A DNA stretch of 64,000 nucleotides from Candidatus Omnitrophota bacterium (lineage in GTDB: Bacteria > Omnitrophota > Gorgyraeia > Zapsychrales > JAHFFX01), in NCBI GenBank assembly GCA_023247725.1, contig JAHFFW010000010.1, positions 7,734 through 71,733 on the forward strand, given 5' to 3'. The notes beneath the pieces were generated by a model. The model had not been told where the DNA came from and did not search any database. It saw only the letters and a list, made by a program, of their open reading frames with translations. Shown piece by piece: positions 16,798 to 38,249 of this stretch; the first letter of the stretch is position 1, and each line of letters begins with the position of its first letter. A program made the position numbers and the translations under genes.

Positions 16798-17136
16798 ATG
16801 CCGGATTTTACCTATACGCCGGATTTTGTTTTGGAAGAGGATATCGGATACAACACCCGCGTTTCGAATTTTGAAAACGGCATTGAGCAGCGCCGCGCGA
16901 TCCGCTCTCGGAGCATTCGAAAGTTCAAATTGAATTTCCAGAACAGGACGAAAACCCAAATGGAGCAGATCAGGGATTTTTTTATTTCCAAGCTCGGGAA
17001 ACTAACGTCCTTTACCTGGACGAATCCGACCGATTCCGTGACCTATACGGTGCGTTTTGATGAAGATTCCTTTATTTTCGATAACCACTCGGCGAACCTC
17101 TATAACTTTTCATTTACGTTTGTTGAGGTTCTATGA
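16798..17136 (+). CDS. minor tail protein, lambda gpM-like
   Basis: GYNTRVSNFENGIEQRR...KFKLNF......EQIRDFFISKLGKLTSFTWTNPTD..YTVRFDEDSF matches the gpM pattern (GYSQRAP.GLN...Y.V.L.....EA..LE.FL..HGG.KSFLWTPP). Confidence 0.7.
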   Translation: MPDFTYTPDFVLEEDIGYNTRVSNFENGIEQRRAIRSRSIRKFKLNFQNRTKTQMEQIRDFFISKLGKLTSFTWTNPTDSVTYTVRFDEDSFIFDNHSANLYNFSFTFVEVL

Positions 17137-17747: not shown

Positions 17748-18166
17748 GGGACAAAGATATCATCAGGAAATATTTAGGGATCCCGTTTAAACACCGGGGA
17801 CGCGCAATCGAAGAAGGGCTGGATTGCTGGGGTCTCATCAAAGCGATCTATGCGGATTGCGGCATAGATTTATTCGACCTTGATTCTTACGAAGTCGACT
17901 GGCCGCAGAATGGCAGGAACCATTTTATGGAATATTACTGTAGGCAATGGGAAAAAGTCGACCGGCCGCAATTCATGGATGTTGTTTTGTTTCGGGCCTC
18001 ACCCATGGTGGTGAATCACGCCGGTTTAGTCTTGAGCGAATCCCGATTTATTCATGCGGCCCGGCCGGGTGTGGTTGTTTCCCGTCTTGGCGAACTGCAG
18101 GTCTTTAAGAAAATCGAGGGCTATTACAGGTTTAAAAATGATCAAGATAAAGTACATTCCCAATAG
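17744..18166 (+). CDS. tail assembly protein, gpK-like NlpC/P60 domain
   Basis: GLDCWGLIKAIY (catalytic Cys) ... VVNHAGLVL (His) in an NlpC/P60 fold. Sits in the lambda K position. Confidence 0.7.
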   Translation: MRDKDIIRKYLGIPFKHRGRAIEEGLDCWGLIKAIYADCGIDLFDLDSYEVDWPQNGRNHFMEYYCRQWEKVDRPQFMDVVLFRASPMVVNHAGLVLSESRFIHAARPGVVVSRLGELQVFKKIEGYYRFKNDQDKVHSQ

Positions 18167-21100
18167 ATTTGAACGTGCCGGGGTAATCGAGAAAGAGGTC
18201 TCATTCAGCCGGGAATTCCGGCTTCGCCATTATATTTCGGCCTTCGATGATCTCCCGCCGGTTGATTTTGAGAAATTCGATTGTATTGTTTCCGGGAAGA
18301 ACGTCAAGGATCTGGATCAATTCATCAATGACGGCGATGAAATTATCATCACTCCCAAGATCGAAGACCCGGGTACAATCTTTGGCATCATTGCCACCAT
18401 TGCGACCGCCTTAGGAGCATCCGCGACCGTTGCGGCTACAATCGCAACAATCGGTACGGCTATTGTCATCGGCGCCACTTTAGCGGCTATCGGGTATTCA
18501 ATCTATCTGGCCACACAAAAACCCAGTCTTCCTTCGTTTGGAACGACCTCCGGAGGCGGCGGTCTGGATGAGGGTTCGCCGACCTATAGCTGGGACGGGA
18601 TACGGACAAACCGCGACGTTAATATGCCGGTGCCGGTTATTTACGGAGAACATAAAGTGGGAGGGACAGCGGTCAATGAATACATCTGGACAGATGGGGA
18701 TAAGAATTTTTTGTACACGCTTCTTGCCCTTTGCGAAGGGGAGATAGAAAGTGTTTCCAATATCAAAATCAATGATAACCCGATTGCGAATTATTCCGGT
18801 GTATCGACAACGACAAAATTGGGGACGAACAGTCAAACGGTCATCCCGAATTTTGAAGATCTCCACAACATCATCTCGGTAAACATTCAGTTGCTTAAAG
18901 ACAGCTCGTATATTTATACGACCTTGGATAGCGATGTGGAGGCCTTTGAAATTAAGTTTAATTTCCCGGGCGGCCTTTACCAAGCGGACAGCGCAAGCGG
19001 CGAGATCCTTTCCTGGCAAGTTACGTATCGGGTGGAATACAAATTAGCCGCATCCGGAACATGGATCGATTTGGGGACAACGACCGTCAGCGAAAAGACG
19101 CGTTCGGCGATCAAAAGAGTTTTTCGTAAAGATGGTTTAACCGCGGGCCGTTACGATATCCGGGTAACCAGGACCTCGGAAAATTCTTCCTTAAGTCCGA
19201 CCAAACAGGGCGATCTCTATCTTCAAAGCGTTGATGAAATCAAAACTGATGATCTTTCTTATCCCAATACCGCACTTTTAGCTATTGAGGCGATCGCGCA
19301 GGAACAATTGTCCGGAGCATCGCCCAATTATAGTTGCGTTGTAAAGGGGAGGAAAGTGTCTGTGCCGCGGGTGATGAATGGCGGAGTTGAGGTTAATTGG
19401 GAAAACTATTATTGGGACCCGAATACAAATCAATTCAAATTATTAGCCGATTCGGCCGTGCTTTCTTGGGATGACACAACCTACGTTGATAAATGGTCGG
19501 CCAATCCCATTTGGTGCCTTAAGGATCTACTGACGAATACCAGGTATGGTTTGGGGGATTTCATCAATGCCTCGCAGATCGATTCCGCGTTGTTTTTGGA
19601 AATGGCCAAGTACTGCGAGGAACGCATTCCCGATGGATCTGGAGGCTATGAAAAGCGTTTCCGGTTGGATGTGGCCATTGACAGTGTAACCAAGGCCTTG
19701 GATCTAATCAATCAGCTTTCGGCCACATTCAATGCCTTCGCCTTTTATTCGGCAGGCAGCGTCAAGTTCTATATCGATAAGCCAGCGGATCCGGCGCAAG
19801 TCTTCGGGATGGGAAATATTATCGAAAATTCATTTCAACAATCTTGGAAATCCATTAAAGAAACGCCCAACATGATCGAAGTCCAATATCTCGATAGCGT
19901 CAAGGATTACGAACAGGAAACGGTTGCGATTATCGATGAGGCTTCTTTAACCGCCGGTGAGCCGATCAGAAAGCACAGGATCCGATTGTTCACAACCAAG
20001 ACTTCTCAGGCCTTAAGAATCGGCCGCTACGCGCTAAAGGTCGCGCAAAATATTGATCGCATCATAAATTTTAAGGCTTCAATTGATGCGATCGCCTGTC
20101 AGGTCGGTGATTTAATCGATGTTTCACACGATGTTCCGCAATGGGGTTTTTCGGGAAGGGTTAATTCTGGATCAAGTACCACCTCCATTGTCCTAGATCA
20201 GGAGATTACGATTGTTTCAGGGAAAACTTATAAGATGGAAATCAGATTTCCCGATGACGTCATTGAGGAAAGAACGGTTTCCAACGCGCCGGGCAACTAT
20301 ACAACATTGACCGTCAGCAGCGCCTTCAGCCAGGCCCCGGCCGCTTATTCGGTCTACGCGTTTGGTGAAACGGACATTCAAACGAAACCATTCAGGATTA
20401 TATCAATCCAGCGCGATAACAAGGATGAAGCGATCCTATCGGCGGTCGAGTATAACGCGGCGATTTATGACGATTCCGTGATAGTCATTCCGGCAAGCAA
20501 TTATTCCGCTTTGAGCCGTGACATTCCCGTGGTCACCAGTTTATCCATTGTGGAAAAGAACGTCATTCTAAGTGACGGAACGATAGGAAGTATCATCGAG
20601 GTTTATTTTTTAAAACCAATCCAAACCAGTTACCTGGTGTCGAGGTACAAAGAGGCCAAGATTTATCTTTCCGATGACAATGGCGTCAGCTGGCAGGCGG
20701 CCGGTTCCACCTCGGAAGAATTCTTTGCGACCAAAGACACTTTAAAAACAGGATCCAGTTATAAGGTGGCCGTTGTCAGCGTTTCTACCGAAGGGGCGGA
20801 AAGCTCGATAAATTCAAGCCCCCAGGCCTCGATAACGATTGCAGGCAAAAGCCTACCTCCGGCCAACATCACCGGCTTTGCTATCAGCCAACACGGCGAT
20901 CAGCTCAATTTAAGCTGGAATCCTGTCCCGGACTTGGATCTGGCAAGGTATGTCATTAAAAAAGGAAGTGAGTGGGCGACCGGCGATTTGATTGCGGAAA
21001 AGGTCGATGTGACGGAATTTTCATCGCCCATTGGCCAGATCGGCGAGCAGACGTACATGATCAAGGCAGTGGATACCTCCGGCAATGAAAGCGTAAATAC

Positions 21101-25627: not shown

Positions 25628-25643
25628 TTTTGGAATTAATAAA

Positions 25644-25678
25644 AACCTCCGTTTAATTATCTAGCGGAGGTTTTTTCT
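25644..25678 (+). terminator. rho-independent terminator ending the phage late/lysis transcription unit
   Basis: AACCTCCG-tttaattatcta-CGGAGGTT stem-loop followed by TTTTTTC. Confidence 0.6.
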
Positions 25679-25680
25679 TG

Positions 25681-25709
25681 TTGGCAATCCAAATCATCGG
25701 TGATACAAT
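25681..25709 (+). promoter_or_regulatory. sigma70-like promoter (TTGGCA-17-TACAAT)
   Basis: ttggca atccaaatcatcggtga tacaat lies ~40 nt upstream of the HTH gene start. Confidence 0.5.
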
Positions 25710-25747
25710 GTGTAACACTTTGGACAATCCCTTTTAGAGGAAATTGA

Positions 25748-25945
25748 ATGGTGAAAAAGGAAGAAGTTTTAACCGCAGAAGAAGTTGCGGAATATCTAAG
25801 GATTCATCCGTACACGCTGAGACGATTAGCCCGGGCAGGCAAACTCCCGGGCTTTAAAATTGGTGGGCAGTGGAGGTTTCGGAAAGATGAAATCGACGCA
25901 TGGTCAAAAGGATCTAAGAATAAGAAGAAAAAAGGGAAATCATAA
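25748..25945 (+). CDS. excisionase-family / MerR-type HTH DNA-binding protein
   Basis: LTAEEVAEYLRIHPYTLRRLARAGKLPGFKIGGQWRFRKDEIDAW is the 'excisionase family DNA binding domain' HTH pattern. 65 aa. The stop overlaps the next ATG. Confidence 0.6.
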   Translation: MVKKEEVLTAEEVAEYLRIHPYTLRRLARAGKLPGFKIGGQWRFRKDEIDAWSKGSKNKKKKGKS

Positions 25946-28900
25946 TGCCGAGAATCTTTGACAATATCGATCTTGATTTATTAACGGCCTTAAAAGAAAC
26001 TTTAAACGTTTCTAATCGTGCTGATTTCTGCGTTGGCTATTTTAATTTGAGGGGATGGAGGCAGATAGATTCTTATATTGAACGTTGGGCCGGTGGTGAG
26101 GGAAAGTGCTGCCGGTTGTTGGTCGGGATGTCAAAGTTACCCCAGGATGAATTGCGAGAAGCGCTAAGCCTTGTGAAGAACGAGGAAGGAATTGATAACC
26201 AAACGGCTTTACGCCTTAAGAAGAAACTAGCCGAGGAATTCCGAAACCAGTTAGCTTGGGGTATACCTACAAATGAAGATGAAGTTGGTCTGCGGCGTTT
26301 GGCATCACAAATTAAGGCTCAAAAGGTTGTGGTCAAGCTATTCCTGCGACACCCTCTCCATGCAAAACTCTATCTGCTTTTTCGTCCTGACCCCATTAAC
26401 CCTACTGTGAGTTATCTTGGCAGTAGCAATCTAACTTTCGCTGGTCTATCTAAACAAGGCGAGTTAAACATTGACGTGTTAGACCACGACGCTTGCCAGA
26501 AATTGTCCAGATGGTTTGAAGATAGATGGGATGATCACCGGTGCATTGATATTTCAAAAGAACTGGCAGATATAATTGATGAGAGTTGGGCGCGCGAGGA
26601 GCAGCCCATTCCTTATTACATATATCTTAAAATGGCTTATCACTTATCGCAGGAGGCTCGAGTTGGTCTGTCTGAATTTAAAATTCCAAAGGAGTTTGGT
26701 CAAAAGCTTTTTGAATTTCAAACAGCGGCGGTTAAGATAGCGGCTCACCATATTAATAAACGTGGTGGTGTGCTAATAGGTGATGTTGTGGGCTTGGGAA
26801 AAACACTAATGGCCACGGCCGTCGCGCGCATTTTCGAAGACGATCACGGACTCGAAACCTTAGTCATCTGCCCCAAGAACTTGGTCCCTATGTGGGAAGA
26901 CTACCGAGAGCAATATCGTTTACATGCCAAAGTGCTTTCCATCAATCGTGCGGCGCGAGAGCTTCCAAGTTTACGCCGATACCGCTTAGTTATTATCGAT
27001 GAGAGTCACAATCTTCGTAATCGTGAGGGGAAACGCTATCGAGCAATTCAAGAATATTTGCAGGAAAATGAAAGTAAGGTAATACTGCTTTCGGCTACTC
27101 CCTATAATAAAACCTATTTGGATTTATCTAATCAATTACGGCTTCTCGTTTCTGCTGATAGTGATATCGGGATTCGCCCCGAACGAAAATTGCGTGAAAT
27201 GGGTGAAACCGAATTTATCCGCCAGCATCAGTGTTCAGTTCGTTCTCTCGCCGCATTTGAAAAGAGTGAATATGCCGATGACTGGCGTGAGCTGATGCGC
27301 CTCTATCTTGTGCGCAGAACACGCACGTTCATCCAGGATAATTACGCTGAAACTGATCCAACGAATGGAAGAAAGTTTTTAACATTTGAAGACGGCACGC
27401 GATCCTATTTCCCGACCCGCATACCAAAGACTGTACCGTTTCATATTGACGATCATAATCCATCAGACCAGTATGCTCAGCTTTATGCGCCTGACGTTGT
27501 CGATATAATCAACCATCTCAATTTACCCAGATATGGTCTAGGCAATTATGTAGCCGCCACCCCCCATAAGCCGCCAACGGCAACTGAGCAAAAGATTTTA
27601 CAAGATCTTTCTCGTGCTGGTCGAAGACTCATGGGTTTCTCGCGAACAAACCTATTTAAACGTCTGGAGAGCAGCGGGCATGCTTTTCTCCAATCGGCTG
27701 AACGGCATATCTTACGGAATTTTATCTTTCTTCACGCTATCGAGAATGACCAGCCGATACCCATTGGAACGCAAGACGCCGAGATTCTCGATACACGATT
27801 CTCTGATGAAGATAAAACAGTTGAGTTATTTAACGATAATGATGACGATGGAGAAGTGGCTGAGGAAACGACATCACTAAGGAGTGAAAAAGATTTCAAA
27901 AATCGAGCTTCAGAAGTTTATTCAGAGTATTTCAAATTACACAAACATCGTTTTAAATGGCTGCCGCCGGAATTTTTCGTTAAATCACTGGCTAATGATT
28001 TACGAGCTGACATAGATACACTTATGAGAATTTTGAACAAATGCAAGCAGTGGGACCCTGCCAAGGATGCGAAACTCGATGCGCTTTACGACCTGTTAAT
28101 AAAAAAATACCCGAATGACAAAGTCCTGATTTTTACCCAATTCGCCGACACGGTACGTTATCTTGAGAAACAACTAACTGATCGTAAGGTTGCAAAACTG
28201 GCTGGCGTTACCGGTGACTCTTCTAATCCCACTGCCTTAGCCTGGCGCTTTAGCCCAATTAGCAATAACAAACAAGAGTATATTAAACCAGCTGATGAAC
28301 TTCGTGTATTAATTGCGACGGATATCCTGAGCGAGGGGCAAAACCTCCAGGATTGTTCCGTTGTGGTCAATTTCGACCTGCCCTGGGCTATCATTCGTTT
28401 AATTCAGCGGGTTGGACGCGTAGACCGTATCGGACAGAAAGCCGAGAAAATATTATGTTATTCATTTCTGCCAGCCGAGGGGGTTGAGCAAATTATTAAT
28501 TTGCGCAACCGTGTGCGACAGAGACTCAGTGAAAATGCCGAAGTGGTAGGGACAGATGAGGCATTTTTCGAAGACGACCGCGATGACAGAAGAGTGCTCG
28601 ATCTATATCACGAAAAATCCGGAATCTTGGATGGAGATGCTGACAGCGAAGTGGATCTTGCATCCTATGCCTACCAGATTTGGAAAAATGCTATTACAGA
28701 GAATCCGGAGTTGCAAAAAGTTATTCCTGAACTGCCGGATGTCGTTTACTCTACAAAACCAATTAAGCCAACTGAAAAAGAACCAGAGGGAGTATTGGTT
28801 TATCTTCGCACGGCAGAAGGAAATGACGCGCTCACTTGGGTCAGTAAAGACGGAAAAAGTGTTACCGAATCACAACTTACAATTCTTAAAGCCGCTGAGT

Positions 28901-29322
28901 GCGCGTCCAATACCCCTACAGTCCAGCGCATGGAAGAACATCATCAGTTAGTTCAGAAAGGCGTTGAGCTGATTGTCGCAGAAGAAAAGTCTGTCGGTGG
29001 CCAGTTAGGACGTCCATCGGGTGCGCGTTTCCGGACATACGAGCGTTTGAAACGATATGTAGAGGAAGTAAAAGGCACTCTTTTCGAATCCCAAGAACTA
29101 CTCAAAGCTATTGAGGAAATATACCGCTATCCCCTGCGGTCGACTGCCCTAGACACCCTCAACCGTCAATTAAGAAGCGGTATATCTGATCAGACATTGG
29201 CGGAATTGGTCGTGGCCCTCCGTGATGAAGGCCGATTGTGTATTATTAATGAGGAAGAGCAGGTTCACGAACCGCAGATTATCTGTTCTCTTGGGCTCGT
29301 TTCTAAGCGGGAGGCCAAGTAA
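25945..29322 (+). CDS. fused PLD-family (HKD) nuclease + SNF2-family helicase
   Basis: N-terminal HAKLYLL.....LGSSNLT (HxK...GSxN HKD motif). Then SNF2 motifs GDVVGLGKTLMA (I), VIIDESHNLRN (II, DExH), LLSATPYNK (III), QRVGRVDRIGQ (VI). 1125 aa. Confidence 0.85.
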   Translation: MPRIFDNIDLDLLTALKETLNVSNRADFCVGYFNLRGWRQIDSYIERWAGGEGKCCRLLVGMSKLPQDELREALSLVKNEEGIDNQTALRLKKKLAEEFRNQLAWGIPTNEDEVGLRRLASQIKAQKVVVKLFLRHPLHAKLYLLFRPDPINPTVSYLGSSNLTFAGLSKQGELNIDVLDHDACQKLSRWFEDRWDDHRCIDISKELADIIDESWAREEQPIPYYIYLKMAYHLSQEARVGLSEFKIPKEFGQKLFEFQTAAVKIAAHHINKRGGVLIGDVVGLGKTLMATAVARIFEDDHGLETLVICPKNLVPMWEDYREQYRLHAKVLSINRAARELPSLRRYRLVIIDESHNLRNREGKRYRAIQEYLQENESKVILLSATPYNKTYLDLSNQLRLLVSADSDIGIRPERKLREMGETEFIRQHQCSVRSLAAFEKSEYADDWRELMRLYLVRRTRTFIQDNYAETDPTNGRKFLTFEDGTRSYFPTRIPKTVPFHIDDHNPSDQYAQLYAPDVVDIINHLNLPRYGLGNYVAATPHKPPTATEQKILQDLSRAGRRLMGFSRTNLFKRLESSGHAFLQSAERHILRNFIFLHAIENDQPIPIGTQDAEILDTRFSDEDKTVELFNDNDDDGEVAEETTSLRSEKDFKNRASEVYSEYFKLHKHRFKWLPPEFFVKSLANDLRADIDTLMRILNKCKQWDPAKDAKLDALYDLLIKKYPNDKVLIFTQFADTVRYLEKQLTDRKVAKLAGVTGDSSNPTALAWRFSPISNNKQEYIKPADELRVLIATDILSEGQNLQDCSVVVNFDLPWAIIRLIQRVGRVDRIGQKAEKILCYSFLPAEGVEQIINLRNRVRQRLSENAEVVGTDEAFFEDDRDDRRVLDLYHEKSGILDGDADSEVDLASYAYQIWKNAITENPELQKVIPELPDVVYSTKPIKPTEKEPEGVLVYLRTAEGNDALTWVSKDGKSVTESQLTILKAAECASNTPTVQRMEEHHQLVQKGVELIVAEEKSVGGQLGRPSGARFRTYERLKRYVEEVKGTLFESQELLKAIEEIYRYPLRSTALDTLNRQLRSGISDQTLAELVVALRDEGRLCIINEEEQVHEPQIICSLGLVSKREAK

Positions 29323-29325
29323 ACT

Positions 29326-32300
29326 ATGCCCGTTGCCGTCGTCAATTGCAGGAATTACCTGAGGAATTTTGATCTAAATTCATTGTTTATCGAACAACTG
29401 GGCTGGGACATTCATGCCCAAACGTTGGAAGTCGCTGTTGACGGGAAAAATTTTATTTTAAATGCTGTAGCTCAAAAACGAGGCATGGCCGCATTTGTCC
29501 TTAATGGCCGCATTCCTGATTATTCCACGCGACGCAAAATTGAGCGTCAGGTAGCTAAGTCCGCCCATGAACACCTGATCATTTTTACTGATCCTGATCA
29601 GACAGTCCAAACATGGCAGTGGGTAAAGCGCGAGGCCGGGAAGCCAATCGCCTGCAGAGAGCATATTTATCACCGCAACCAATCCGGAGACGGGCTGATT
29701 CAGAAACTTCAAGCGATTGCCATTAGCATTGAAGAGGAAGAAAGCTTAACGCTTCCTCAAGTCGTTAACCGTGCGCGGACAGCCTTTGATGTCGAACGTG
29801 TCACTAAACGCTTCTATGATTGCTTCAAAACCGAACATGATGCTTTCTTCCGATTTATCAAAGGGATTCCTGATGATGAACTGCACCGCTGGTATGCTTC
29901 CGTTATGCTCAACCGGCTGATGTTCATCTATTTCATTCAAAAAAAAGGCTTCCTCGATGGTGATACTAATTACCTTCAGACGAAATTGATGCAAGCTAAG
30001 CAGCGGGGCAAAGATTGTTTCTATCGCGAACAGCTCTGCCCGCTATTCTTTGAGGGTTTCGCCAAAAAGCCCTCCCAGCGATCAGCCTCAAGTAACAAAC
30101 TTTTGGGCAAAGTGCCTTATCTAAACGGCGGGATCTTTCAACGTCATCAAATTGAAGAGCTTCATGGAAAACAAATTCAGATTTCCGATGCCGCCTTCGA
30201 GAAATTATTCAGTTTCTTTGAACAATACCACTGGCATTTGGACGAACGCCCGCTTCGCTCCGATAATGAAATCAACCCGGATGTTCTTGGTTACATTTTC
30301 GAAAAATACATCAACCAGAAGCAGATGGGGGCGTATTACACCAAAGAAGATATCACGGGCTACATCAGCAAATACACGATCAGTCCGTTCCTCTTCGAGG
30401 CGGCCCGCGGCAAATGCAAAGTGGCTTTTGAAAACCCTAAGGGACCTACTATCTGGGATTTGCTTAAAACCGATCCGGATCGTTATATCTATAATGCTGT
30501 CAAAAAAGGGATGAATCTGCCCCTGCCTCCGGAAATCGCGGCCGGGGTTAAGGACGTTGCCAAGCGCACCGAATGGAACAAACAAGCGTCCGAAGAATAT
30601 GCCCTTCCACCCGAAATTTGGCGCGAAGTCATTGAGCGGCGCAAACGCTATGAAGAAGTTAAAAGGAAACTAACCACAGGAGAAATCAAGGATATCAACG
30701 ATCTCATCACCTATAACCTCGACATTCGCCAGTTTGCCCAGGATGTCATAGAAAATTGTGAAGGCCCGGAATTGCTCCGTGCCTTTTGGCATGGTATTGA
30801 ACCAATTACCGTGCTCGACCCGACCTGCGGCAGCGGGGCGTTTTTGTTTGCCGCCGTGAACATTCTTGAGCCGCTTTACGAAGCCTGCCTTGACCGGATG
30901 GAGATGTTTGTTGAAGAGATGGAGTGTTCTGCTCAAAAACACCGCCCTGAGAAATTTTCCGATTTTCGCAAAATCCTAGAGCGTGTTGCTCAGCATCCCA
31001 ATCGCAGATATTTTATTTTCAAATCTATCATCGTCAATAACCTTTACGGTGTGGATATTATGGAAGAGGCTGTCGAAATCTGCAAGTTGCGCCTGTTTCT
31101 CAAGCTTGTTGCGCAGATTGACCGTGAAGAGCAAATCGAACCGTTGCCCGACATCGACTTCAATATCCGGGCCGGTAATACACTGATTGGCTATGCCACT
31201 TACGAGGAGATGAAAAGCGCCATTACAAGCCGGCTTGATTTTGATAATGCCTTGGATCGTATTGAAAAAAGGGCTCAGGATGTGGATCGACTGTTTAGTT
31301 TATTTCGTCAACAACAGACTGAATTAGGTGGCGAGGTCGCAGCTGAAGATAAACAGGTTTTACGAGATCGCCTTAAATCTCTTGAAGATGAACTCAATCA
31401 GTACCTCGCCAACGAATACGGCGTGGATACCAAGAAGCACGGTCCTTACGAACAATGGCTGAAAACGCATCATCCGTTTCATTGGTTTATCGAATTTTAC
31501 GGCATCATGAAGAAAGGCGGGTTCAATGTCATAATCGGTAACCCGCCATACCTTGAATTACGCGAAGTACGGTATACTCCCCAAAATTTTAAATGTGGGA
31601 ATAGTGGGGCAATCCATGCGATGTGTATCGAACGCAGTGTGCAGTTACTCCATCGACAGGGATGCATGAGCATGATTGTTCCATTGTCCTTGGTCTCAAC
31701 ACAACGAATGCAGATCGTTCAGGAAGTTCTAGAAACTAAACGAAACGCTTGGTATTCAAATTACTCGTGGCGCCCGGGTAAGCTTTTCGATACAGTTAAC
31801 CGCGCCCTGACTATCTTCGCTAGCACGCCATCAGAAAAAGGTAGAACATTCTCGACTAACTATCAGAAATGGACATCTGATAGTCGTGATTTACTTATGT
31901 TAAAACTCAACTTCATTGAAATCTTTCGACCGCGACCGGCTTGTTGGATTCCCAAACTTGGTAATGAGATAGAACCTTCAATTTTAAAGAAATGTTTACA
32001 AGTAAAAGTCCCATTAGGCAGTTTTATCCGAAATAATAATTACAGGATTTACTATCGCACCACTGGAGGCCTCTATTGGAAAGTATTTACAGATTTTCCA
32101 CCCGCATTCAAAGTTAATGGAAAGGTCGGTCACTCCAGTCGAGAAACTAAGTTTTCGTTAACCGACGCAAGATTTGTTTTTCCTGTCATAGCTGTTTTAA
32201 GCAGCGATCTGTTTTGGTGGTGGTACACTATCACAACTAATTGTCGTGATCTTAACCCTTATGATATACAGAATTTTCCTATTCCTGAATCTGCGATAAC

Positions 32301-32562
32301 TGACGCAGCGCTGTCAAGCTTAGGAGAAAAATACCTGAAAGATATTAAGCAAAATAGCATCATGCTGGTTCGTGTTCAAAGACAAACTGGCAGGACTCAA
32401 ACTCAGTCGTTTAAAATCCAAAAGACTAAGGCGATCATCGATGAAATTGACCAAGTGATAGCTAATCATTATAGGCTTAATCAAGAAGAGATAGACTTTA
32501 TCACAAATTATGACATCAAGTACCGCTTAGGTTTCGATGATGAAGATAACGATGAAGAATAG
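29326..32562 (+). CDS. MmeI/PglX-family (type IIG / BREX-like) N6-adenine DNA methyltransferase
   Basis: KVPYLNGGIFQ...LGYIFEKYINQKQMGAYYTKEDITGYI parallels MmeI (FPYINGKLFE...IFGSLFQSI...LGAHYTSEANI). Motif I VLDPTCGSGAFLFAAV and motif IV VIIGNPPYLE (NPPY). The N-terminal ~100 aa contain a possible degenerate PD-(D/E)xK (IIFTD...QWVK). ~1078 aa with a long C-terminal TRD-like region. Confidence 0.85.
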   Translation: MPVAVVNCRNYLRNFDLNSLFIEQLGWDIHAQTLEVAVDGKNFILNAVAQKRGMAAFVLNGRIPDYSTRRKIERQVAKSAHEHLIIFTDPDQTVQTWQWVKREAGKPIACREHIYHRNQSGDGLIQKLQAIAISIEEEESLTLPQVVNRARTAFDVERVTKRFYDCFKTEHDAFFRFIKGIPDDELHRWYASVMLNRLMFIYFIQKKGFLDGDTNYLQTKLMQAKQRGKDCFYREQLCPLFFEGFAKKPSQRSASSNKLLGKVPYLNGGIFQRHQIEELHGKQIQISDAAFEKLFSFFEQYHWHLDERPLRSDNEINPDVLGYIFEKYINQKQMGAYYTKEDITGYISKYTISPFLFEAARGKCKVAFENPKGPTIWDLLKTDPDRYIYNAVKKGMNLPLPPEIAAGVKDVAKRTEWNKQASEEYALPPEIWREVIERRKRYEEVKRKLTTGEIKDINDLITYNLDIRQFAQDVIENCEGPELLRAFWHGIEPITVLDPTCGSGAFLFAAVNILEPLYEACLDRMEMFVEEMECSAQKHRPEKFSDFRKILERVAQHPNRRYFIFKSIIVNNLYGVDIMEEAVEICKLRLFLKLVAQIDREEQIEPLPDIDFNIRAGNTLIGYATYEEMKSAITSRLDFDNALDRIEKRAQDVDRLFSLFRQQQTELGGEVAAEDKQVLRDRLKSLEDELNQYLANEYGVDTKKHGPYEQWLKTHHPFHWFIEFYGIMKKGGFNVIIGNPPYLELREVRYTPQNFKCGNSGAIHAMCIERSVQLLHRQGCMSMIVPLSLVSTQRMQIVQEVLETKRNAWYSNYSWRPGKLFDTVNRALTIFASTPSEKGRTFSTNYQKWTSDSRDLLMLKLNFIEIFRPRPACWIPKLGNEIEPSILKKCLQVKVPLGSFIRNNNYRIYYRTTGGLYWKVFTDFPPAFKVNGKVGHSSRETKFSLTDARFVFPVIAVLSSDLFWWWYTITTNCRDLNPYDIQNFPIPESAITDAALSSLGEKYLKDIKQNSIMLVRVQRQTGRTQTQSFKIQKTKAIIDEIDQVIANHYRLNQEEIDFITNYDIKYRLGFDDEDNDEE

Positions 32563-33151
32563 AACTCCTGCGGATATGGAAACTCGTGAAGTTTCAAGAG
32601 GCCATCACGATTATCCGAATCAACTCATTCGTTGTTTTGAGAATAGATCGCCTTTAATTATCACTATGCAAGGCAACATTTCGATTTTTCGAAATGATAA
32701 ATTGGCCCTCTTTTGTTCGGTCAAATGTCCCGGCAAGGTCATCATTACGCTTTATGACTATATGCAAGCTTTGTGTGAGCAAGGCCAAACGGTCATCAGC
32801 GGTTTTCATTCACCCTTGGAGAAAGAATGCCTCCGCATTCTGCTCCGCGGCCGACAACCAGTTATTATCTGCCCGGCTCGAGCTATTCAAAATATGCGCT
32901 TGCCGGAGGACTGGAAGAAACCGCTTCAAGAAGGCCAACTGCTTTTGATATCGCCTTTCAAGGGAAACCAACGTCGGGTTACTATAGATCATGCTCAACA
33001 ACGAAATGAATTTGTCGCAGCCCTAGCGGACAGGATATTGATTCCCTATTCGTTCCCTGGTGGACGAACGGAAAAACTGCTTGAAAAGATTTCGCGCTGG
33101 AATAAACCCATTCTAACAGATATCGGATCAACCATGCAGTTTGCAAGATAA
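32537..33151 (+). CDS. DprA/Smf-like Rossmann-fold (SLOG) protein
   Basis: YPNQLIRCFENRSPLIITMQGN...LALFCSVKCPG...VISGFHSPLEKECLRILLRG...VIICPA...LLLISPF....RNEFVAALADRILI matches the DprA core (YP.LL..i.dpP.vLy.rG...vAiVGSRk.s...SGlA.GID..aH..aL..gG.tiaVl..gl...vvSE.....RNriiagLs..vlvve). The start overlaps the MTase stop (translational coupling). Confidence 0.65.
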   Translation: MMKITMKNRTPADMETREVSRGHHDYPNQLIRCFENRSPLIITMQGNISIFRNDKLALFCSVKCPGKVIITLYDYMQALCEQGQTVISGFHSPLEKECLRILLRGRQPVIICPARAIQNMRLPEDWKKPLQEGQLLLISPFKGNQRRVTIDHAQQRNEFVAALADRILIPYSFPGGRTEKLLEKISRWNKPILTDIGSTMQFAR

Positions 33152-33235: not shown

Positions 33236-33270
33236 GGCAAGGCCTAAGATTGGTTTTGCCATTTTTTATT
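33236..33270 (+). terminator. weak terminator-like hairpin after the MTase/DprA-like operon
   Basis: GGCAA-(15 nt)-TTGCC followed by ATTTTTTATTTATT. A second hairpin CGACCATT-N12-AATGGTCG lies at 33162-33189. Confidence 0.3.
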
Positions 33271-33305: not shown

Positions 33306-33334
33306 TTGACAAAAATAAAGTCAATTGATATAGT
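33306..33334 (+). promoter_or_regulatory. strong sigma70-like promoter (TTGACA-17-TATAGT) driving the Ubl-conjugation operon
   Basis: ttgaca aaaataaagtcaattga tatagt lies ~40 nt upstream of the first ORF of the operon. Flanked by two CAATTG palindromes, a possible operator. Confidence 0.55.
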
Positions 33335-33375
33335 ATGTGCAATTGTAACAGTTTAATTGAATATGGAGGTGTGAA

Positions 33376-33549
33376 ATGGTCGCAAAACCAACGATTCAGG
33401 AGCTAGAGGCTCTTTTAAATAGTGAAGAGGAGACGCCTATGCAAATTCTTCCTAATGGGGAAATCAGAGCCGTTGGGCAGACAAATCCTGCTGATCTTGC
33501 AGGGAAGAAGCCAATAACCATGAAAGAAGATTTAGGTGGAGAATATTGA
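33376..33549 (+). CDS. 57-aa ORF ending ...KEDLGGEY; candidate ubiquitin-like/Pup-like modifier or conjugation substrate
   Basis: Not in the ORF track because it is under 60 aa. RBS GGAGGTG 6 nt upstream of ATG 33376. The stop overlaps the start region of the E2 gene. Translation: MVAKPTIQELEALLNSEEETPMQILPNGEIRAVGQTNPADLAGKKPITMKEDLGGEY. It is the first gene after the strong promoter. The di-Gly lies 2 residues from the C-terminus, in an operon that encodes E1, E2 and a JAB peptidase. Confidence 0.4.
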   Translation: MVAKPTIQELEALLNSEEETPMQILPNGEIRAVGQTNPADLAGKKPITMKEDLGGEY

Positions 33550-33551
33550 TT

Positions 33552-33926
33552 ATGGATACTGGTCGTATTCAAAGAGAATTTTTAGAAGCCCAAAGAGCCT
33601 TTTCCTACATTGAGCTTCACCCTACTATCGATGGCAAGGTGTACGTAAAGACAGCGCTCCAAGCTTCAAATCAAATGTATATTCTATCCATTAAGTTCCC
33701 AGATGGTTATCCGAACGAGATGCCAAGAGTATTTGTTGATACCCCAGCCATAACGACTGCTCCACACAGATATCAAAATGGCCATATCTGTTATCTTCAC
33801 CCTACGATGTGGAATCCAGGAATTCACAATATTTCTTTTGTAATTGCGCGGGCAGCAAAATGGTTAAACAAATATGAGATTTGGAAACGTCAAGGTCAGT
33901 GGCCCGGTGCGGAGATTAAACACTAA
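33552..33926 (+). CDS. E2-like ubiquitin-conjugating enzyme (UBC fold, catalytic Cys)
   Basis: FPDGYPNEMPRVFV.....PHRYQNGHICYLHPTMWNPG matches the UBC core (..P..PP.v.F.t.i.HPN....G.ICLdiL...WsP). Start taken at ATG 33552 (MDTGRIQ) with GGTGGAG as RBS. Confidence 0.65.
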   Translation: MDTGRIQREFLEAQRAFSYIELHPTIDGKVYVKTALQASNQMYILSIKFPDGYPNEMPRVFVDTPAITTAPHRYQNGHICYLHPTMWNPGIHNISFVIARAAKWLNKYEIWKRQGQWPGAEIKH

Positions 33927-33938
33927 GAGAAGGTAACT

Positions 33939-34472
33939 ATGAAAATAGATTTTAAAACTTTAAAAATGATGGAATTGAGAAGTTCTCCTGGAGAGGTTTT
34001 AGATCGGGTAGCCAGAGATGGGGAGGTATTTGTCATTGAGAGAAATGGTCAGCCCAAAGCATGCCTTGTTCCGGTTTCTTTTCTTCTGCCTGATATTTCT
34101 CCAGAAAGGATAACGGAGGAGTTAAATAAACTTCGCGATAAAAAGGAAAATTATAAATTAACGATTAATGATCATAAGGAACTTGAGATTAAATTTCAGG
34201 AGAGTGCTGCTGGCGAAAATATTGTAATCAGTATCGTGCTGCCACACGGGTATCCCAACGCTGCTCCCAGAATTGACGCACAGGGTATTCCAGAAAACAC
34301 GCCCCATCGATGGCAAGATGGGTCTTTATCGATTTTTGGAACCATAGCAACGTGGAATACCAAGAGTCACGATATCATTTACGCATTAATTGTAGCCAGA
34401 AGTTGGCTTAAGCAATACGCGAAATGGCGAAAAACTGGTGAATGGCCAAAAGATTTGCAGGACGGATCATGA
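33939..34472 (+). CDS. Phd/YefM-like N-terminal domain fused to a catalytically inactive E2 variant (UEV-like)
   Basis: N-terminus LKMMELRSSPGEVLDRVARDGEVFVIERNGQPKACLVPVSFL matches the Phd/YefM antitoxin fold pattern. C-terminus LPHGYPNAAPRIDA....PHRWQDGSLSIFGTIATWN is paralogous to the upstream E2, but the active-site Cys is replaced by Ser. Confidence 0.55.
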   Translation: MKIDFKTLKMMELRSSPGEVLDRVARDGEVFVIERNGQPKACLVPVSFLLPDISPERITEELNKLRDKKENYKLTINDHKELEIKFQESAAGENIVISIVLPHGYPNAAPRIDAQGIPENTPHRWQDGSLSIFGTIATWNTKSHDIIYALIVARSWLKQYAKWRKTGEWPKDLQDGS

Positions 34473-35323
34473 AAAAAGATCAAACATTCGAGAGAATTGA
34501 CTCCCTTTTTGATATTCAACTTTTGGCACCTGTCCGGGTGCTATTCGCTGGCTGTGGCTCCGGTGGAGGAAGTGTAGCTCTCCAACTTGTCATGTCGGGA
34601 ATTCGTAATTTTACACTTTTAGATCGGGATATCCTTGGAGCAGAAAATGTTATTAGGCATGTTTGCGGAAGAAGTTTTATAGGGAAAAAGAAAGTCGATG
34701 CCTTAACGGAAATTTTACAGGACAGGAATCCAAATATCGATGTCAAAAAGATAGAAGCGGACATAATGAATTTTTCGGATATTGAATCAGAAATTTGCGG
34801 ATCTGATGTTGTTGTTTTGGCGACGGACAACGAACCATCCCGTTATAAAATTAATGAAATTTGCGTAAAAAATGAAATTCCTTTTGTCGTGGGACGGGTT
34901 TTTACCAGAGGTATTGGAGGCGAGGTCTTTAGTTATCGACCTGACTCTGGGGGATGTTTGGCTTGTCTTGAATCTTTTTTGCAGCGTACTTCATATAGAG
35001 AAGGGATAAGGGAGATAGATCTTGTTTCTGAGGAAGAGCGGGAGAAAATTTATGGTATGGAAATTTCAGAAATAAAAGACTCCCCCGGTCTGGCGGTGGA
35101 TATTTCCTTTATTACTTCTTTCCATACAAGGTTTGTATTGGACGCTATTGCGCGGCGTTTGAAAGATCGGCCTAAGTATTTGAATTTGATAGATGAAAAT
35201 TATTTAGTTTGGGGGAACCGGCCGGTGCATCCGTTTAAGAAACATTTTCAGTTGCAAAGATTTAATTTAGATCGTCAGGAGAGTTGCGCACTATGCTCGG
35301 AGAGGAATGTGGCCGATGTTTAA
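34469..35323 (+). CDS. E1-like ubiquitin-activating enzyme (ThiF/MoeB family)
   Basis: VLFAGCGSGGGSVALQLVMSGIRNFTLLDRDILGAENVIRH (Rossmann GxGxxG + D.D.v..sNl.RQ) and two CxxC pairs (GGCLACLE...CALCSE). ATG 34469 overlaps the upstream stop (ATGA). Confidence 0.8.
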   Translation: MKKDQTFERIDSLFDIQLLAPVRVLFAGCGSGGGSVALQLVMSGIRNFTLLDRDILGAENVIRHVCGRSFIGKKKVDALTEILQDRNPNIDVKKIEADIMNFSDIESEICGSDVVVLATDNEPSRYKINEICVKNEIPFVVGRVFTRGIGGEVFSYRPDSGGCLACLESFLQRTSYREGIREIDLVSEEEREKIYGMEISEIKDSPGLAVDISFITSFHTRFVLDAIARRLKDRPKYLNLIDENYLVWGNRPVHPFKKHFQLQRFNLDRQESCALCSERNVADV

Positions 35324-36236
35324 ATCAAAAAAGCCAGAGGTTAATATTTATATTCCGAAATCAGCACTTGGTGTGATTTATGATGAATGTGATCAGTATG
35401 ACCTTGATGAAACAGGCGGCAGGCTCATTGGAAATTATAAAAAAAATGGTAATAAATATACAATTGAGGTCTCAGGGATTATAGAACCCGGCCCAAAAGC
35501 GACAAGGACAGCAACGAGCTTTTTTCAGGACGGAGAATATCAGGAGAAGATTTTTAGATCAGTTGAAGAAAAACATCCCGACGTTGAACATCTGGGAAGT
35601 TGGCACACACATCACGTTAATGGCCTTGATACTTTGAGTTCTGGTGATAGGGCTACTTACCAGAGGATTGTCAATCACCATATGCATAATACGGATTTTT
35701 TCTATGCGCTTTTAGTTGTTGAAAAGAAAACCGGCGGGCAACAAAGGTATACGATCAAACATTATTTCTTGCGTCGCAAAGATTCGGCGATTTATGAAAT
35801 TCCGGACTCACAGGTTCACATTATAGATAAGCCCCTCATTTGGCCGTTCAGCGGCGCAAATAATTATTTACCGTCGTCTATACCTAAGGCTGTGGAGGTC
35901 AAAAGCAACTCCAATCAGGAACGTGTCAAAGATCAAGAATTTTTCGCTGAATTTTATTCCGGCTTTAAGCCTTTATTCTCAAAGAACACGAATGCCTTTT
36001 ATTGGAAAGGTAAATTGAATCTTGTTGATAACACCTTTTTAGACGTGGTGGTTATAGAAAATCAGGATGATCATGGATGGGCCTATTCGATCGCTGTTGC
36101 TGATCAGATCCCATCAATATCCAATATTTTGACAAGTTACAAAGATCGTACCTTTAAATCTGCAAGGCTTGCCGTGTTTAATATAGAGAGAAACATCAAT
36201 CAAGGAATTTATCTTAAAAAGGAATCAAATGTATGA
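35307..36236 (+). CDS. JAB/JAMM (MPN+) metallopeptidase, deubiquitinase-like
   Basis: ETGGRLIG ... HLGSWHTHHVNGLDTLSSGD fits the JAMM motif E...H(S/T)H-x7/8-S-x2-D. Confidence 0.8.
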   Translation: MWPMFKSKKPEVNIYIPKSALGVIYDECDQYDLDETGGRLIGNYKKNGNKYTIEVSGIIEPGPKATRTATSFFQDGEYQEKIFRSVEEKHPDVEHLGSWHTHHVNGLDTLSSGDRATYQRIVNHHMHNTDFFYALLVVEKKTGGQQRYTIKHYFLRRKDSAIYEIPDSQVHIIDKPLIWPFSGANNYLPSSIPKAVEVKSNSNQERVKDQEFFAEFYSGFKPLFSKNTNAFYWKGKLNLVDNTFLDVVVIENQDDHGWAYSIAVADQIPSISNILTSYKDRTFKSARLAVFNIERNINQGIYLKKESNV

Positions 36237-37072
36237 ACATTATCACAGTCAATGTTGGTCAAGGTGCCCTTTCCTTGGTAAGACATAATAAGGAAGCAAT
36301 TGTAATTGATTCTAGAATTCCACCTTCAGATGACAAAACTGTCGCTTATGTGAAAGAAATGTTGATGGTGTCGCTAAAGGATCACTATGTTAAGGGTCTT
36401 ATATTAACCGGTTTTGATAGTGATCATTCGGATATAACGGGAGTTTCTATTATTCTCCGTAAGTATCGCCCTGATTGGGTCGTGTATCCCAAGTACTATA
36501 AGGAGAGTGAAGAGGCGAGATCGGTTTTTGAACGAATAGAACAAGAGGAAAAAGAAAGATGCAGTTCAACAAATCCTTTGAAAAGAATTTCTGTTAGACT
36601 TGATCAACTAAAGAATCGAAAACTTGTGGGGCTCTCTTCAAACTTTGAGTTTGAATTATTTTCTCCCCATATTGAGGATATGGACTGTTCTAACAATTGC
36701 AGTATTGTACTTAAATTGTCTGGAATCGGGGCAGGCGGTTTTTCATATTTGATAACGGGCGATACAGAAAATGAAAGATGGGAAACAATTAGCAAATTTT
36801 TTGGCGAGGCTCTTAAATCTCATATTTTGGCTGCGCCGCATCATGGCTCAAAAAACGCTACCCATCCCGCATCCCTGCTTCATATTGAACCTCACACTGT
36901 ACTTATCAGCGCTGGCGTAGACAATCAATATGGCCATCCCGACCCGGAGGCCTTAAGAGTTTATAGCCGGGTTGCAAAATTTGTATTCTCCACAAATATG
37001 CAAAACGGTGTTTCACTTTTTACGCGGGACGGAATAACCGGATTTACCACGGAATTGATCCCAAGTAATTAG
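36233..37072 (+). CDS. MBL-fold protein, ComEC/Rec2 C-terminal nuclease-like, degenerate motif I
   Basis: VNVGQGALSLV...AIVIDS...LILTGFDSDHSD (HxHxDH degenerated to GFDSDH) ... ITGDTE...ILAAPHHGSKNA (ComEC-type HHGS). ATG overlaps the JAB stop (ATGA). Confidence 0.65.
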   Translation: MNIITVNVGQGALSLVRHNKEAIVIDSRIPPSDDKTVAYVKEMLMVSLKDHYVKGLILTGFDSDHSDITGVSIILRKYRPDWVVYPKYYKESEEARSVFERIEQEEKERCSSTNPLKRISVRLDQLKNRKLVGLSSNFEFELFSPHIEDMDCSNNCSIVLKLSGIGAGGFSYLITGDTENERWETISKFFGEALKSHILAAPHHGSKNATHPASLLHIEPHTVLISAGVDNQYGHPDPEALRVYSRVAKFVFSTNMQNGVSLFTRDGITGFTTELIPSN

Positions 37073-37148
37073 TATATGTGCAATGCTATGTTAAGAGTTC
37101 TGTTATTCTTGTGTGTCAACGCAGTCGGAAAATATCGAAATGAGGTAA

Positions 37149-38249
37149 ATGGATATGGGTTATGATGTAGATTTTTTACCGGTAGGTGACGGAGAGAAGG
37201 GGGGCGATGCGATTGCTGTGCGATGGGGAAATCTAAACGGGAATCGCACAGAACAGAAAGTAATGGTCATTGATGGAGGGACGAAAGATTCAGGGAATGC
37301 TCTTGTAAAACACATTAAAGAATATTACAAAACTGATTTTGTTGATTATGTATTTTGTACTCATCCGGATGCCGATCATGCCTCTGGATTAACGGTTGTC
37401 TTAGAAGAATTAAAAGTTGGTATCTTGTGTATGCATCGTCCATGGGAACATGCCGCAGATATTAAAAATTTGTTTCAGAATGGGAAGATAACAGCAACGA
37501 GTCTCAGAGAAAATCTTCGTAAGGCACTCGAGAACGCGCATGAACTTGAAAGCATTGCGACTAAAAAAGGTATCAAGATTTTTGAGCCGTTTTCCGATAG
37601 TGTTACGAATTCAAATTCTCCATTGACAATTTTAGGACCCAGTGAGGAATTTTATCAATTGATGCTTGCTAATTTTCGGGAAACGCCCAAGCCGAAGGAT
37701 AATGTTAATATTCTCGGTCGCAGTGCTATACTTACCGCCGTTCGGGAAGCAATCCGATGGATAGGGGAAACATGGGGAGTGGAAACCCTTGCAGATCCTG
37801 AGGAGTTTGAAACGAGTGCAGAAAATAATTCCAGCGTTATACTTCTTTTACAGGTTGATGGAAATAAGCTTCTCTTTACGGGCGATGCAGGTGTTGAATC
37901 TCTTGATGCTGCTATTAATAAAGCAATTACTTTGGGGATTGATTTAACGGGTATTTCCTTTATTCAAATTCCGCATCATGGGAGTAAGCATAATGTCAGT
38001 CCATCTCTACTCGATAAACTGGTTGGTCCTAAATTAACCAATGATATTTCTAATAAAACAGCGTTTGTGAGTGTGCCCTTAAAGGGAGATCCAAAGCATC
38101 CATCAAGGAAAGTGACAAATGCCTTCAAAAGGCGAGGTGCGAAGGTTATAGCAACAAAAGAAAGCACGAAACATCATTTTAAAGATGCCCCTGATCGCGG
38201 CTGGGTTAAGGCGGAACCATTGCCTTTCTATGACCAAGTTGCTGATTAG
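37149..38249 (+). CDS. MBL-fold protein, ComEC/Rec2 C-terminal nuclease-like (paralogue of 36233..37072)
   Basis: VDFLPVGDGEKGGDAIAV...VMVIDGGT...YVFCTHPDADHASG ... LLFTGDAGVESLD...IQIPHHGSKHN. The start may be ATG 37155, which has better RBS spacing. Confidence 0.65.
   Translation: MDMGYDVDFLPVGDGEKGGDAIAVRWGNLNGNRTEQKVMVIDGGTKDSGNALVKHIKEYYKTDFVDYVFCTHPDADHASGLTVVLEELKVGILCMHRPWEHAADIKNLFQNGKITATSLRENLRKALENAHELESIATKKGIKIFEPFSDSVTNSNSPLTILGPSEEFYQLMLANFRETPKPKDNVNILGRSAILTAVREAIRWIGETWGVETLADPEEFETSAENNSSVILLLQVDGNKLLFTGDAGVESLDAAINKAITLGIDLTGISFIQIPHHGSKHNVSPSLLDKLVGPKLTNDISNKTAFVSVPLKGDPKHPSRKVTNAFKRRGAKVIATKESTKHHFKDAPDRGWVKAEPLPFYDQVAD

Follow-up and report, generated by a model that had tools for sequence, protein, structure and literature searches.

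A PLD-SNF2 fusion protein and a PglX-like methyltransferase form a widespread gene pair with the predicted features of a two-component restriction-modification system

We analysed a 64,000-nucleotide stretch of a Candidatus Omnitrophota bacterium genome (GenBank assembly GCA_023247725.1, contig JAHFFW010000010.1, positions 7,734 to 71,733 of the forward strand; hereafter the window), of which positions 25681-33151 carry genes for a small helix-turn-helix (HTH) protein, a fusion of a phospholipase D-type (PLD) nuclease with an SNF2 helicase (PLD-SNF2), a large adenine methyltransferase and a DprA-like protein. We found that PLD-SNF2 and the methyltransferase form a core pair with intact catalytic motifs. 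The system is very widespread and is apparently unnamed and uncharacterised. We think it reasonably probable that the pair is a two-component ATP-dependent restriction-modification (RM) system that follows the logic of Type III and Type ISP enzymes, is built from parts of the BREX (bacteriophage exclusion) and DISARM type, and uses PLD-SNF2 as its restriction subunit.

An initial annotation, made from the sequence alone, had described these genes as a restriction or BREX-related module outside the named systems. Its open reading frames (ORFs) and domain assignments hold, and the four genes are as follows:

25748..25945, + strand: HTH gene, 65 aa, ORF confirmed
25945..29322, + strand: PLD-SNF2 gene, 1125-aa HKD(PLD)-SNF2 fusion; predicted restriction and translocase subunit
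29326..32562, + strand: methyltransferase gene, 1078 aa, gamma-class N6-adenine; predicted modification and specificity subunit
32537..33151, + strand: DprA-like gene, 204 aa, a DprA-type Rossmann (SLOG) domain alone; terminal accessory gene

The nuclease-motor and methyltransferase proteins

The reading of PLD-SNF2 as an HKD nuclease and an SNF2 helicase in one polypeptide is borne out by Pfam matches to PLDc_2 (residues 112-195), SNF2-related (259-324) and Helicase_C (710-830). The polypeptide has one HKD motif, at its N-terminal end, and its recognizable motifs are HAK at 139-141 (H139, K141), GSSN at 159-162, GLGKT at 283-287, DESH at 352-355 and motif VI at 821-831. No variation occurs in the HxK...GSSN...E set, Walker A, DESH or motif VI among 21 homologues with identities down to about 40%. 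The top PADLOC model is 'HKD+Snf2' (PDLC01075, 1.2e-53, residues 6-871), the nearest solved structures by sequence are RapA and other SNF2 proteins, and the scores against DrmD, BrxH and DpdE lie far under the thresholds of those families. The C-terminal region (approximately 880-1125) is conserved, and its fold was not assigned. Homologues of PLD-SNF2 fall into at least 8,000 clusters at 90% identity; the best 120 of these are all 73-77% identical and come from NC10, Nitrospirae, Thermodesulfobacteriota, Poribacteria, Methanosarcinales, Bathyarchaeia and other groups.

The methyltransferase, at 1078 aa, has the anticipated length of about 1080 aa and all three of the hallmark motifs first noted in it, PYLNGGIF (264-271), MGAYYT (334-339) and NPPY (739-742), together with an FxGxG-type motif, DPTCGSGAF (498-506). 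Its Pfam matches are Eco57I (2e-23), MmeI_Mtase and DUF7814. An N-terminal alpha/beta domain (1 to approximately 130) is followed by a helical domain that contains PYLNGGIF and MGAYYT, a catalytic domain and a hypervariable target-recognition region (approximately 800-1000). A Foldseek search with the AlphaFold2 (AF2) model, whose mean predicted local distance difference test score (pLDDT) is 81.4, placed BREX PglX/BrxX at the top (E 1.9e-12, about 1,130 alignment columns), and MmeI and BpuSI were weaker structural matches than PglX, CamA and HsdM. A sequence profile compared with the PDB matched only PglX, BrxX and MmeI, weakly and in the catalytic domain alone, with no PDB match for the N-terminal domain; single-sequence PDB searches with the methyltransferase and with the DprA-like protein returned nothing useful. 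Against the NCBIfam model BREX_1_MTaseX the methyltransferase scores 63.7 bits, where the cutoff is 500; it is a relative and, by this curated model, not a member.

We then consider whether the methyltransferase carries a nuclease of its own. In the AF2 model, residues 1-130 are confidently predicted as an alpha/beta domain that contains beta-beta-beta-alpha-beta elements, and this domain is restricted to the N-terminus of the same methyltransferase family (1,049 matches in 1.84 billion representative proteins), the full-length members of which are 1,040-1,280 aa long. A comparison of 61 sequences found no conserved PD-(D/E)xK triad in it: among the candidate positions, D89 is D in 50 of the 61, and K101 is K in 46 and R in 12 (R in the Synechocystis homologue Slr6050). 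K51, R69, E82 and R111 of the same domain are invariant or nearly so. From this and from its closest structural matches, PglX/BrxX, the methyltransferase is probably without a nuclease of its own.

Different parts of the methyltransferase have diverged differently. For 33 locus pairs, mean pairwise identity is 62% for PLD-SNF2 and 41% for the methyltransferase. Region 801-1000 of the latter has a mean pairwise identity of 22%, and its divergence is uncorrelated with that of the partner protein (r 0.07). Co-variation with PLD-SNF2 is seen for the N-terminal part (r 0.57) and the helical part (r 0.53). Such a pattern is expected of an exchangeable target-recognition domain carried by a scaffold that evolves together with its partner. 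Programmed inversions, described by Milman et al. 2023 for methyltransferase genes of this kind beside PLD-SNF coding sequences (PMC9881135), likewise fit a specificity subunit.

Pairing, distribution and accessory genes

Gene neighbourhoods of PLD-SNF2 homologues were compared by scanning one genome per species, which gave 68 loci from about 25 phyla; pairing was counted in the 39 loci in which PLD-SNF2 is full-length and the downstream flank spans at least 3.5 kb. A methyltransferase homologue starts at most 3 kb past the PLD-SNF2 stop in 38 of these 39 loci, with a median gap of approximately 10 nucleotides. The reverse test, on megabase-scale contigs, found PLD-SNF2 upstream of the methyltransferase homologue in 3/3 cases. 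Adjacency in both directions thus identifies PLD-SNF2 and the methyltransferase as an obligate pair. The system is present in bacteria, in archaea and on plasmids, and both homologue searches yielded at least 8,000 clusters; the locus is common, not rare. Most homologous loci are chromosomal. Searches of plasmids by tblastn found homologues on 119, full-length on 28, and tblastn against 50,697 phage records returned two weak partial SNF2 matches and no close homologue, so it is not a typical item of phage cargo.

The four genes had been presented as one block. They do form one operon here; beyond this copy, however, the core is the PLD-SNF2/methyltransferase pair only, with the DprA-like gene as a recurrent accessory and the HTH gene as a sporadic one. 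An HTH homologue lies upstream in four of the 68 genome loci (L003, L006, L019, L062), 47 of which carry a full-length PLD-SNF2 ORF, and it is thus a local addition rather than a component of the system. The HTH protein is of the excisionase/MerR type and MAD1-like (Pfam HTH_17 1.6e-19; PADLOC mad1 3e-11), and it probably controls expression of the operon in this mobile copy.

The DprA-like gene is found downstream in 11 of the 33 loci with enough flank, usually separated from the pair by cargo genes, and in 6/6 cases on long contigs it is the last gene after the PLD-SNF2/methyltransferase pair. The family seems to be confined to this system. The protein matches Pfam DNA_processg_A (1e-9) and PADLOC PsyrA (4e-18), and its AF2 model (pLDDT 92.5) confirms the DprA fold. 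Its family signature consists of an invariant GFHSPxExE and four conserved cysteines (C60, C64, C98 and C112; invariant or nearly so) which may form a metal or redox site; we know of neither feature in canonical DprA, with which no comparison was made.

Related loci, which sit in defence islands and on plasmids, have variable genes inserted between the methyltransferase and DprA-like genes, and sometimes between PLD-SNF2 and the methyltransferase, with a content that differs from locus to locus (observed in L074, L076-L078, L079, L081 and L082 among others). This cargo includes toxin-antitoxin genes (VapBC, DUF433/DUF5615, DUF4258/DUF2283, ParE), defence genes (Thoeris ThsA/ThsB; HSP70-TPR with a UvrD-like helicase; Fic with Ymh; MTaX1-HNH), a DUF1016 nuclease, a Dam methylase and TPR-SLFN_AlbA_2. 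The window copy is a compact version without cargo.

Three departures from the usual arrangement were seen. The methyltransferase of L074 is divided between two proteins, an N-terminal one of 476 aa and a methyltransferase-SLFN_AlbA_2 protein of 857 aa, and an ISL3 transposase interrupts PLD-SNF2 in L084. A variant in L070-L073 (16683-19626) has the methyltransferase followed by a stand-alone 183-aa PLDc_2 protein and a 777-aa protein without a Pfam match, has no DprA-like gene, and is adjoined by a reverse transcriptase with a SLATT_5 gene; it is widely sampled, its protein P0051 being present in 24 contigs examined and in 48 blocks of the collection.

Within the window, the four co-directional genes (25748-33151) are confirmed as one operon with a promoter-like site and a terminator of its own. 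The HTH stop overlaps the PLD-SNF2 start, 3 nucleotides lie between the PLD-SNF2 and methyltransferase genes, and the first 26 nucleotides of the DprA-like gene lie within the methyltransferase gene, so that the overlap reported earlier between these two genes is real. The flanking signals are:

25641..25675, + strand: terminator hairpin, perfect 11-bp stem then T-run; ends the upstream phage tail/small-gene block and marks the left edge of the module
25681..25709, + strand: sigma-70-like promoter TTGGCA-17-TACAAT with extended TG; 10/12 consensus matches
33236..33270, + strand: terminator-like hairpin (33236-33260) and T-run; closes the operon
33306..33334: promoter-like site; start of the next operon

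The sigma-70-like promoter and excisionase-type HTH gene placed ahead of the block by the initial annotation are therefore both present, with the reservation that the site at 25681-25709 is a consensus match only and that such sites are not in excess across the region. A search for operator repeats near the promoter reported the terminator hairpin only. By eye, we noticed a near-repeat within 25681-25730, TTGGCAATCC (overlapping the -35 hexamer) and TTGGACAATCC (about 10 nucleotides past the -10 hexamer), which the repeat search passed over owing to an indel and which could be a candidate operator for the HTH protein.

Proposed mechanism and its alternatives

It had been suggested that restriction in this module has been handed to a translocating PLD nuclease. 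The comparative evidence fits this proposal, in that 38 of 39 loci show the pairing, the catalytic motifs are invariant, no conserved PD-(D/E)xK triad was seen in the N-terminus of the methyltransferase and its homologue Slr6050 resisted deletion; the mechanism itself we infer. The PglX-like methyltransferase would use its variable target-recognition domain to read a short asymmetric site, in which it would methylate one adenine, and host DNA would thereby be marked. By analogy with its homologue and structural relatives, it probably methylates one strand of this site. At an unmethylated site it would instead recruit or license PLD-SNF2, and the SNF2 motor would move PLD-SNF2 along the DNA. 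In single-HKD nucleases such as Nuc, BfiI and SauUSI, two copies of the protein are needed to make up an active site. Given one HKD motif per PLD-SNF2 polypeptide, a nuclease active site is thus expected only when two PLD domains come together, and the DNA would be cut once they meet, either within a pre-formed dimer or through two converging motors.

If one strand only is methylated, then at each site one of the two duplexes produced by replication carries no mark, so a rule that spares the host is needed. We propose that HKD pairing coupled to the motor would supply this rule, with cleavage only when two loaded enzymes meet. The DprA-fold protein probably binds single-stranded DNA and/or RecA, or else the methyltransferase, and would limit self-damage by promoting repair and RecA loading or by promoting methylation. 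The HTH protein would set the timing of expression after entry into a new cell. There are precedents for the suggested role of the DprA-like protein: ShosA, like DprA, binds single-stranded DNA and RecA, and ShosA counteracts DNA damage (PMC11961720, PMC12961424), while Helicobacter pylori DprA inhibits restriction enzymes and stimulates methyltransferases via direct contact (PMC3597690). A stronger version of this proposal, which we advance tentatively, is that these loci represent a distinct, unnamed and widespread class of ATP-dependent RM systems in which two single-HKD motors must meet, with a DprA-fold subunit for self-protection or repair and with the methyltransferase-DprA interval as a hotspot for defence genes.

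Indirect support comes from plasmid pSYSX of Synechocystis PCC 6803 (L079, NC_005232.1), which encodes first a PLD-SNF2 homologue (52.7% identity), then an embedded VapBC pair and then a 'DNA methyltransferase' of 1,100 aa that is 46% identical to the window methyltransferase over its full length. By size and position, we identify the last of these as Slr6050 (M.Ssp6803IV). Hagemann et al. assigned Slr6050 to the asymmetric motif GA(m6A)GGC, where m6A is N6-methyladenine, and could not segregate its deletion (PMC6105098). Such non-segregation is as expected if an active, separately encoded cognate nuclease is present.

Several points weigh against a cleaving RM system. BREX, whose methyltransferase is the closest structural relative of the one described here, excludes phage without detectable DNA cleavage. 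The alpha/beta domain at the N-terminus of the methyltransferase may be a degenerate or unusual nuclease. PLD-SNF2 keeps approximately 75% identity across distant bacterial phyla and archaea, which is atypical of a defence effector. GAAGGC was attributed to Slr6050 by elimination and on the basis of REBASE, the authors of that study read the non-segregation as essentiality and not as restriction, and polar effects are a possible cause of it. Finally, open-access PMC papers and bioRxiv yielded passing mentions only, and no name or experiments for the two-gene system. One such mention shows that the pairing had already been noticed: a table in Milman et al. 2023 lists two genomes with a 'Type II RM CDS homologous to Cj0031' under programmed inversions, and these Cj0031-like coding sequences (CDSs) adjoin a CDS with PLD and SNF helicase domains (PMC9881135).

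We therefore weighed three other explanations. The system might exclude phage without degrading their DNA, as BREX does: the methyltransferase would mark self DNA, a PLD-SNF2/methyltransferase complex would block replication of unmethylated DNA by remodelling or stalling, and the HKD domain would serve as a clamp or nickase, with no double-strand breaks. The fold and architecture of the methyltransferase, which are closest to BREX PglX/BrxX, are consistent with this, SNF2 proteins typically act by remodelling and not by unwinding DNA, and related SNF2 helicases occur in BREX type 3 (BrxHII) and DISARM (DrmD). However, the full HKD catalytic set is invariant, the core BREX proteins PglZ, BrxC, BrxA and BrxB are all absent, and the failure of the Synechocystis methyltransferase mutant to segregate suggests that self DNA without methylation is lethally damaged. 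We consider this explanation unlikely.

We think it distinctly unlikely that the methyltransferase is a self-contained Type IIG/IIL enzyme and PLD-SNF2 an independent or auxiliary fellow traveller, for example a back-up or modification-dependent nuclease. Like MmeI, BpuSI, Eco57I and Cj0031, it does have both a gamma-class N6-adenine methyltransferase and a target-recognition domain within a single polypeptide. The REBASE-derived PADLOC model 'REase_MTase_IIG' (PDLC03628) matches it over its full length with 1022 bits, so that one outcome named beforehand as counting against the initial reading, classification by database tools as a described system, came half true: an automatic tool would call the methyltransferase type IIG and ignore its partners. 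Milman et al. also describe genes of this kind as homologous to the type IIG enzyme Cj0031 (PMC9881135), the N-terminal 130 residues are a confidently predicted alpha/beta domain, and back-up nucleases are common around BREX-like loci (PMC12839542). Yet no conserved D...(D/E)xK was found in that domain, MmeI and BpuSI are the weaker structural matches, and REBASE names the Synechocystis member 'M.', not 'RM.' (PMC6105098). Moreover, loss of a bifunctional enzyme should not kill, and the 38/39 adjacency and the N-terminal co-variation with PLD-SNF2 argue for an obligate partnership.

Very unlikely, finally, is a module that serves a phage or mobile element, whether as a prophage that methylates its own DNA and excludes or degrades competitors (superinfection exclusion) or as an addiction module that stabilises the element: the operon does lie right after tail-fibre genes with a moron-like architecture (own promoter and terminator, lower G+C content), homologues occur on plasmids and post-segregational killing would fit the Synechocystis result, but phage records hold no close homologue, most loci are chromosomal, neither an integrase (among scanned ORFs) nor an att site was found, and this explanation concerns who benefits and leaves the molecular mechanism unchanged.

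If the two-component RM model is true, the labels that automatic tools assign, 'type IIG RM' or 'helicase-related protein', conceal a very common defence system that is a class of its own and couples a methyltransferase of the BREX type to a nuclease-motor, PLD-SNF2. The pair would also provide a minimal two-protein system for asking how a PglX-like methyltransferase passes the information 'unmethylated site' to an effector, which is an open question for BREX. The homologous pSYSX locus offers a tractable host, with a candidate motif (GAAGGC) and a methyltransferase that could not be deleted. The DprA-like accessory would, under the same model, be a new example of immunity making use of a recombination-mediator fold, and the variable cargo slot is a practical place to seek new defence genes.

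Genomic setting and comparison with named systems

The first 24 kb of the window (1-24 kb) are a lambda-like structural module with large terminase, portal, tape measure, tail tip protein J and a tail fibre with a collar domain, and the operon sits directly after its tail-fibre genes. G+C content is approximately 0.48 in the phage part, 0.44-0.46 in the four-gene module and 0.40 in a ubiquitin-like operon that follows. An 837-aa ORF (4236-6749) in the head/packaging region, between terminase and portal, has no PHROG or PADLOC match and a single, sub-threshold Pfam match. No tRNA gene was found that would mark the prophage ends, no integrase or recombinase family was matched by Pfam among the scanned ORFs downstream of the module (33.5-43.6 kb), and the region had no megablast match in phage records or in E. 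coli genomes.

Directly downstream is a separate operon (33306-38249) of ubiquitin-like conjugation genes:

33376..33549: 57-aa ORF ending ...LGGEY
33546..33926: E2
33939..34472: second E2-like protein, Phd-like N-terminus
34442..35323: ThiF E1
35307..36236: JAB protein
36233..37072: first metallo-beta-lactamase (MBL)-fold protein
37149..38249: second MBL-fold protein, PADLOC PDC-M48B 3e-102

Weak NCBIfam '6A-MBL' matches were also obtained. This operon appears to be a candidate defence system based on ubiquitin-like conjugation, its E1, E2 and JAB proteins each encoded by a gene of its own, and together with the PLD-SNF2/methyltransferase operon it is a small defence island at the end of the phage structural module. 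Ordinary chromosomal genes (glucodextranase, dehydrogenases, RND efflux) lie beyond it. A ubiquitin-like operon (multiubiquitin, E2/UBC, ThiF, DUF6527; 16924-19545) also immediately adjoins the locus on pSYSX, as one does in the window; this co-occurrence in two unrelated hosts could be chance within defence islands or could reflect a functional link.

The system belongs to no named multi-gene family that we tested, and the defining parts of BREX, DISARM, the BREX-related (BR)/Hma systems, MADS, PsyrTA/ShosTA and Type ISP are missing. The absence of PglZ, BrxC, DrmA and DrmB, claimed at the outset, stands: neither these nor DUF499 were matched among the larger window ORFs by Pfam, PADLOC or NCBIfam, a scan that covered the small phage structural ORFs at 1-18 kb only partly, and the large ORFs are terminase, the unmatched 837-aa phage protein, tail tip protein J, glucodextranase and AcrB only.

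Two systems share single components with the operon. The HTH protein recalls MADS, for which it scores 62.7 bits against NCBIfam MADS1 (NF047737), under the cutoff of 80, and no other mad protein (mad2-8) was matched. PsyrTA and ShosTA have the DprA fold, but the operon encodes no homologue of PsyrT (RecQ-like) or ShosT (phosphoribosyltransferase), the partners here being PLD-SNF2 and the methyltransferase; and, in contrast to ShosA, PsyrA and DprA, the DprA-like protein has its own signature and lacks the SAM and winged-helix domains of DprA.

Type III (EcoP15I) and Type ISP (LlaGI/LlaBIII) enzymes use PD-(D/E)xK or Mrr nucleases, whereas the nuclease here is PLD and the motor is of the SNF2 type; the gamma-class methyltransferase with its PglX-like layout also differs from Type III Mod. 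Type ISP membership was rejected, as an ISP enzyme joins an Mrr nuclease, a superfamily 2 (SF2) motor, a methyltransferase and a target-recognition domain in a single polypeptide, and here there are two polypeptides, an HKD/PLD nuclease and a motor closest to SNF2/RapA. SauUSI is likewise a PLD-helicase enzyme, but it is modification-dependent and without a methyltransferase.

DISARM class 1 (DrmD SNF2, DrmMI, DrmA, DrmB and DrmC PLD) has the same three activities, namely an SNF2 helicase, an Eco57I-type N6-adenine methyltransferase and a PLD nuclease, and weak PADLOC matches to DrmD (3e-34) and DrmMI (3e-24) were obtained. The PLD and SNF2 domains are fused here, however, the defining DrmA (YprA helicase) and DrmB (DUF1998) are absent from the window and from the conserved neighbourhood, and the score against the DrmD model NF038317 is 134.9 bits, where the cutoff is 610.

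PglX/BrxX of BREX type 1 are the closest solved structures to the methyltransferase, with the helical-domain and catalytic motifs common to both, and an asymmetric site with one-strand methylation would be expected for both. On the other hand, PglZ, BrxC, BrxA, BrxB and BrxL are absent, the N-terminal domain is family-specific and the partner is a nuclease-motor fusion. For BREX types 1-6 as a whole, PglZ was found neither in the scanned window ORFs nor, by cluster analysis, in the 39 related loci with flank, and the large BrxC/PglY ATPase was not among the scanned window ORFs.

Type-2 BR systems, described by Rakesh and Krishnan 2026, have an HKD-Swi2/Snf2 effector; their defining parts are a DUF499 ATPase, DUF3780 and a methyltransferase that differs from the one here (PMC12839542). 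They consist of the DUF499 ATPase, DUF3780, an N6-methyltransferase and HKD-Swi2/Snf2, with Hma as their Type-1 sibling, and membership of Type-2 BR/Hma was rejected in that the DUF499 AAA+ ATPase and DUF3780 are absent from the operon, the scanned window ORFs and the conserved neighbourhood. The likeness lies in the N-terminal HKD endonuclease fused to a Swi2/Snf2 motor and in a shared predicted logic, by which the methyltransferase would protect self DNA and the helicase-nuclease would restrict. The difference lies in the methyltransferase, which here is Eco57I/PglX-like, approximately 1,100 aa long and equipped with its own target-recognition domain, and not of the COG1743/DUF1156 type, and in a core that consists of two genes.

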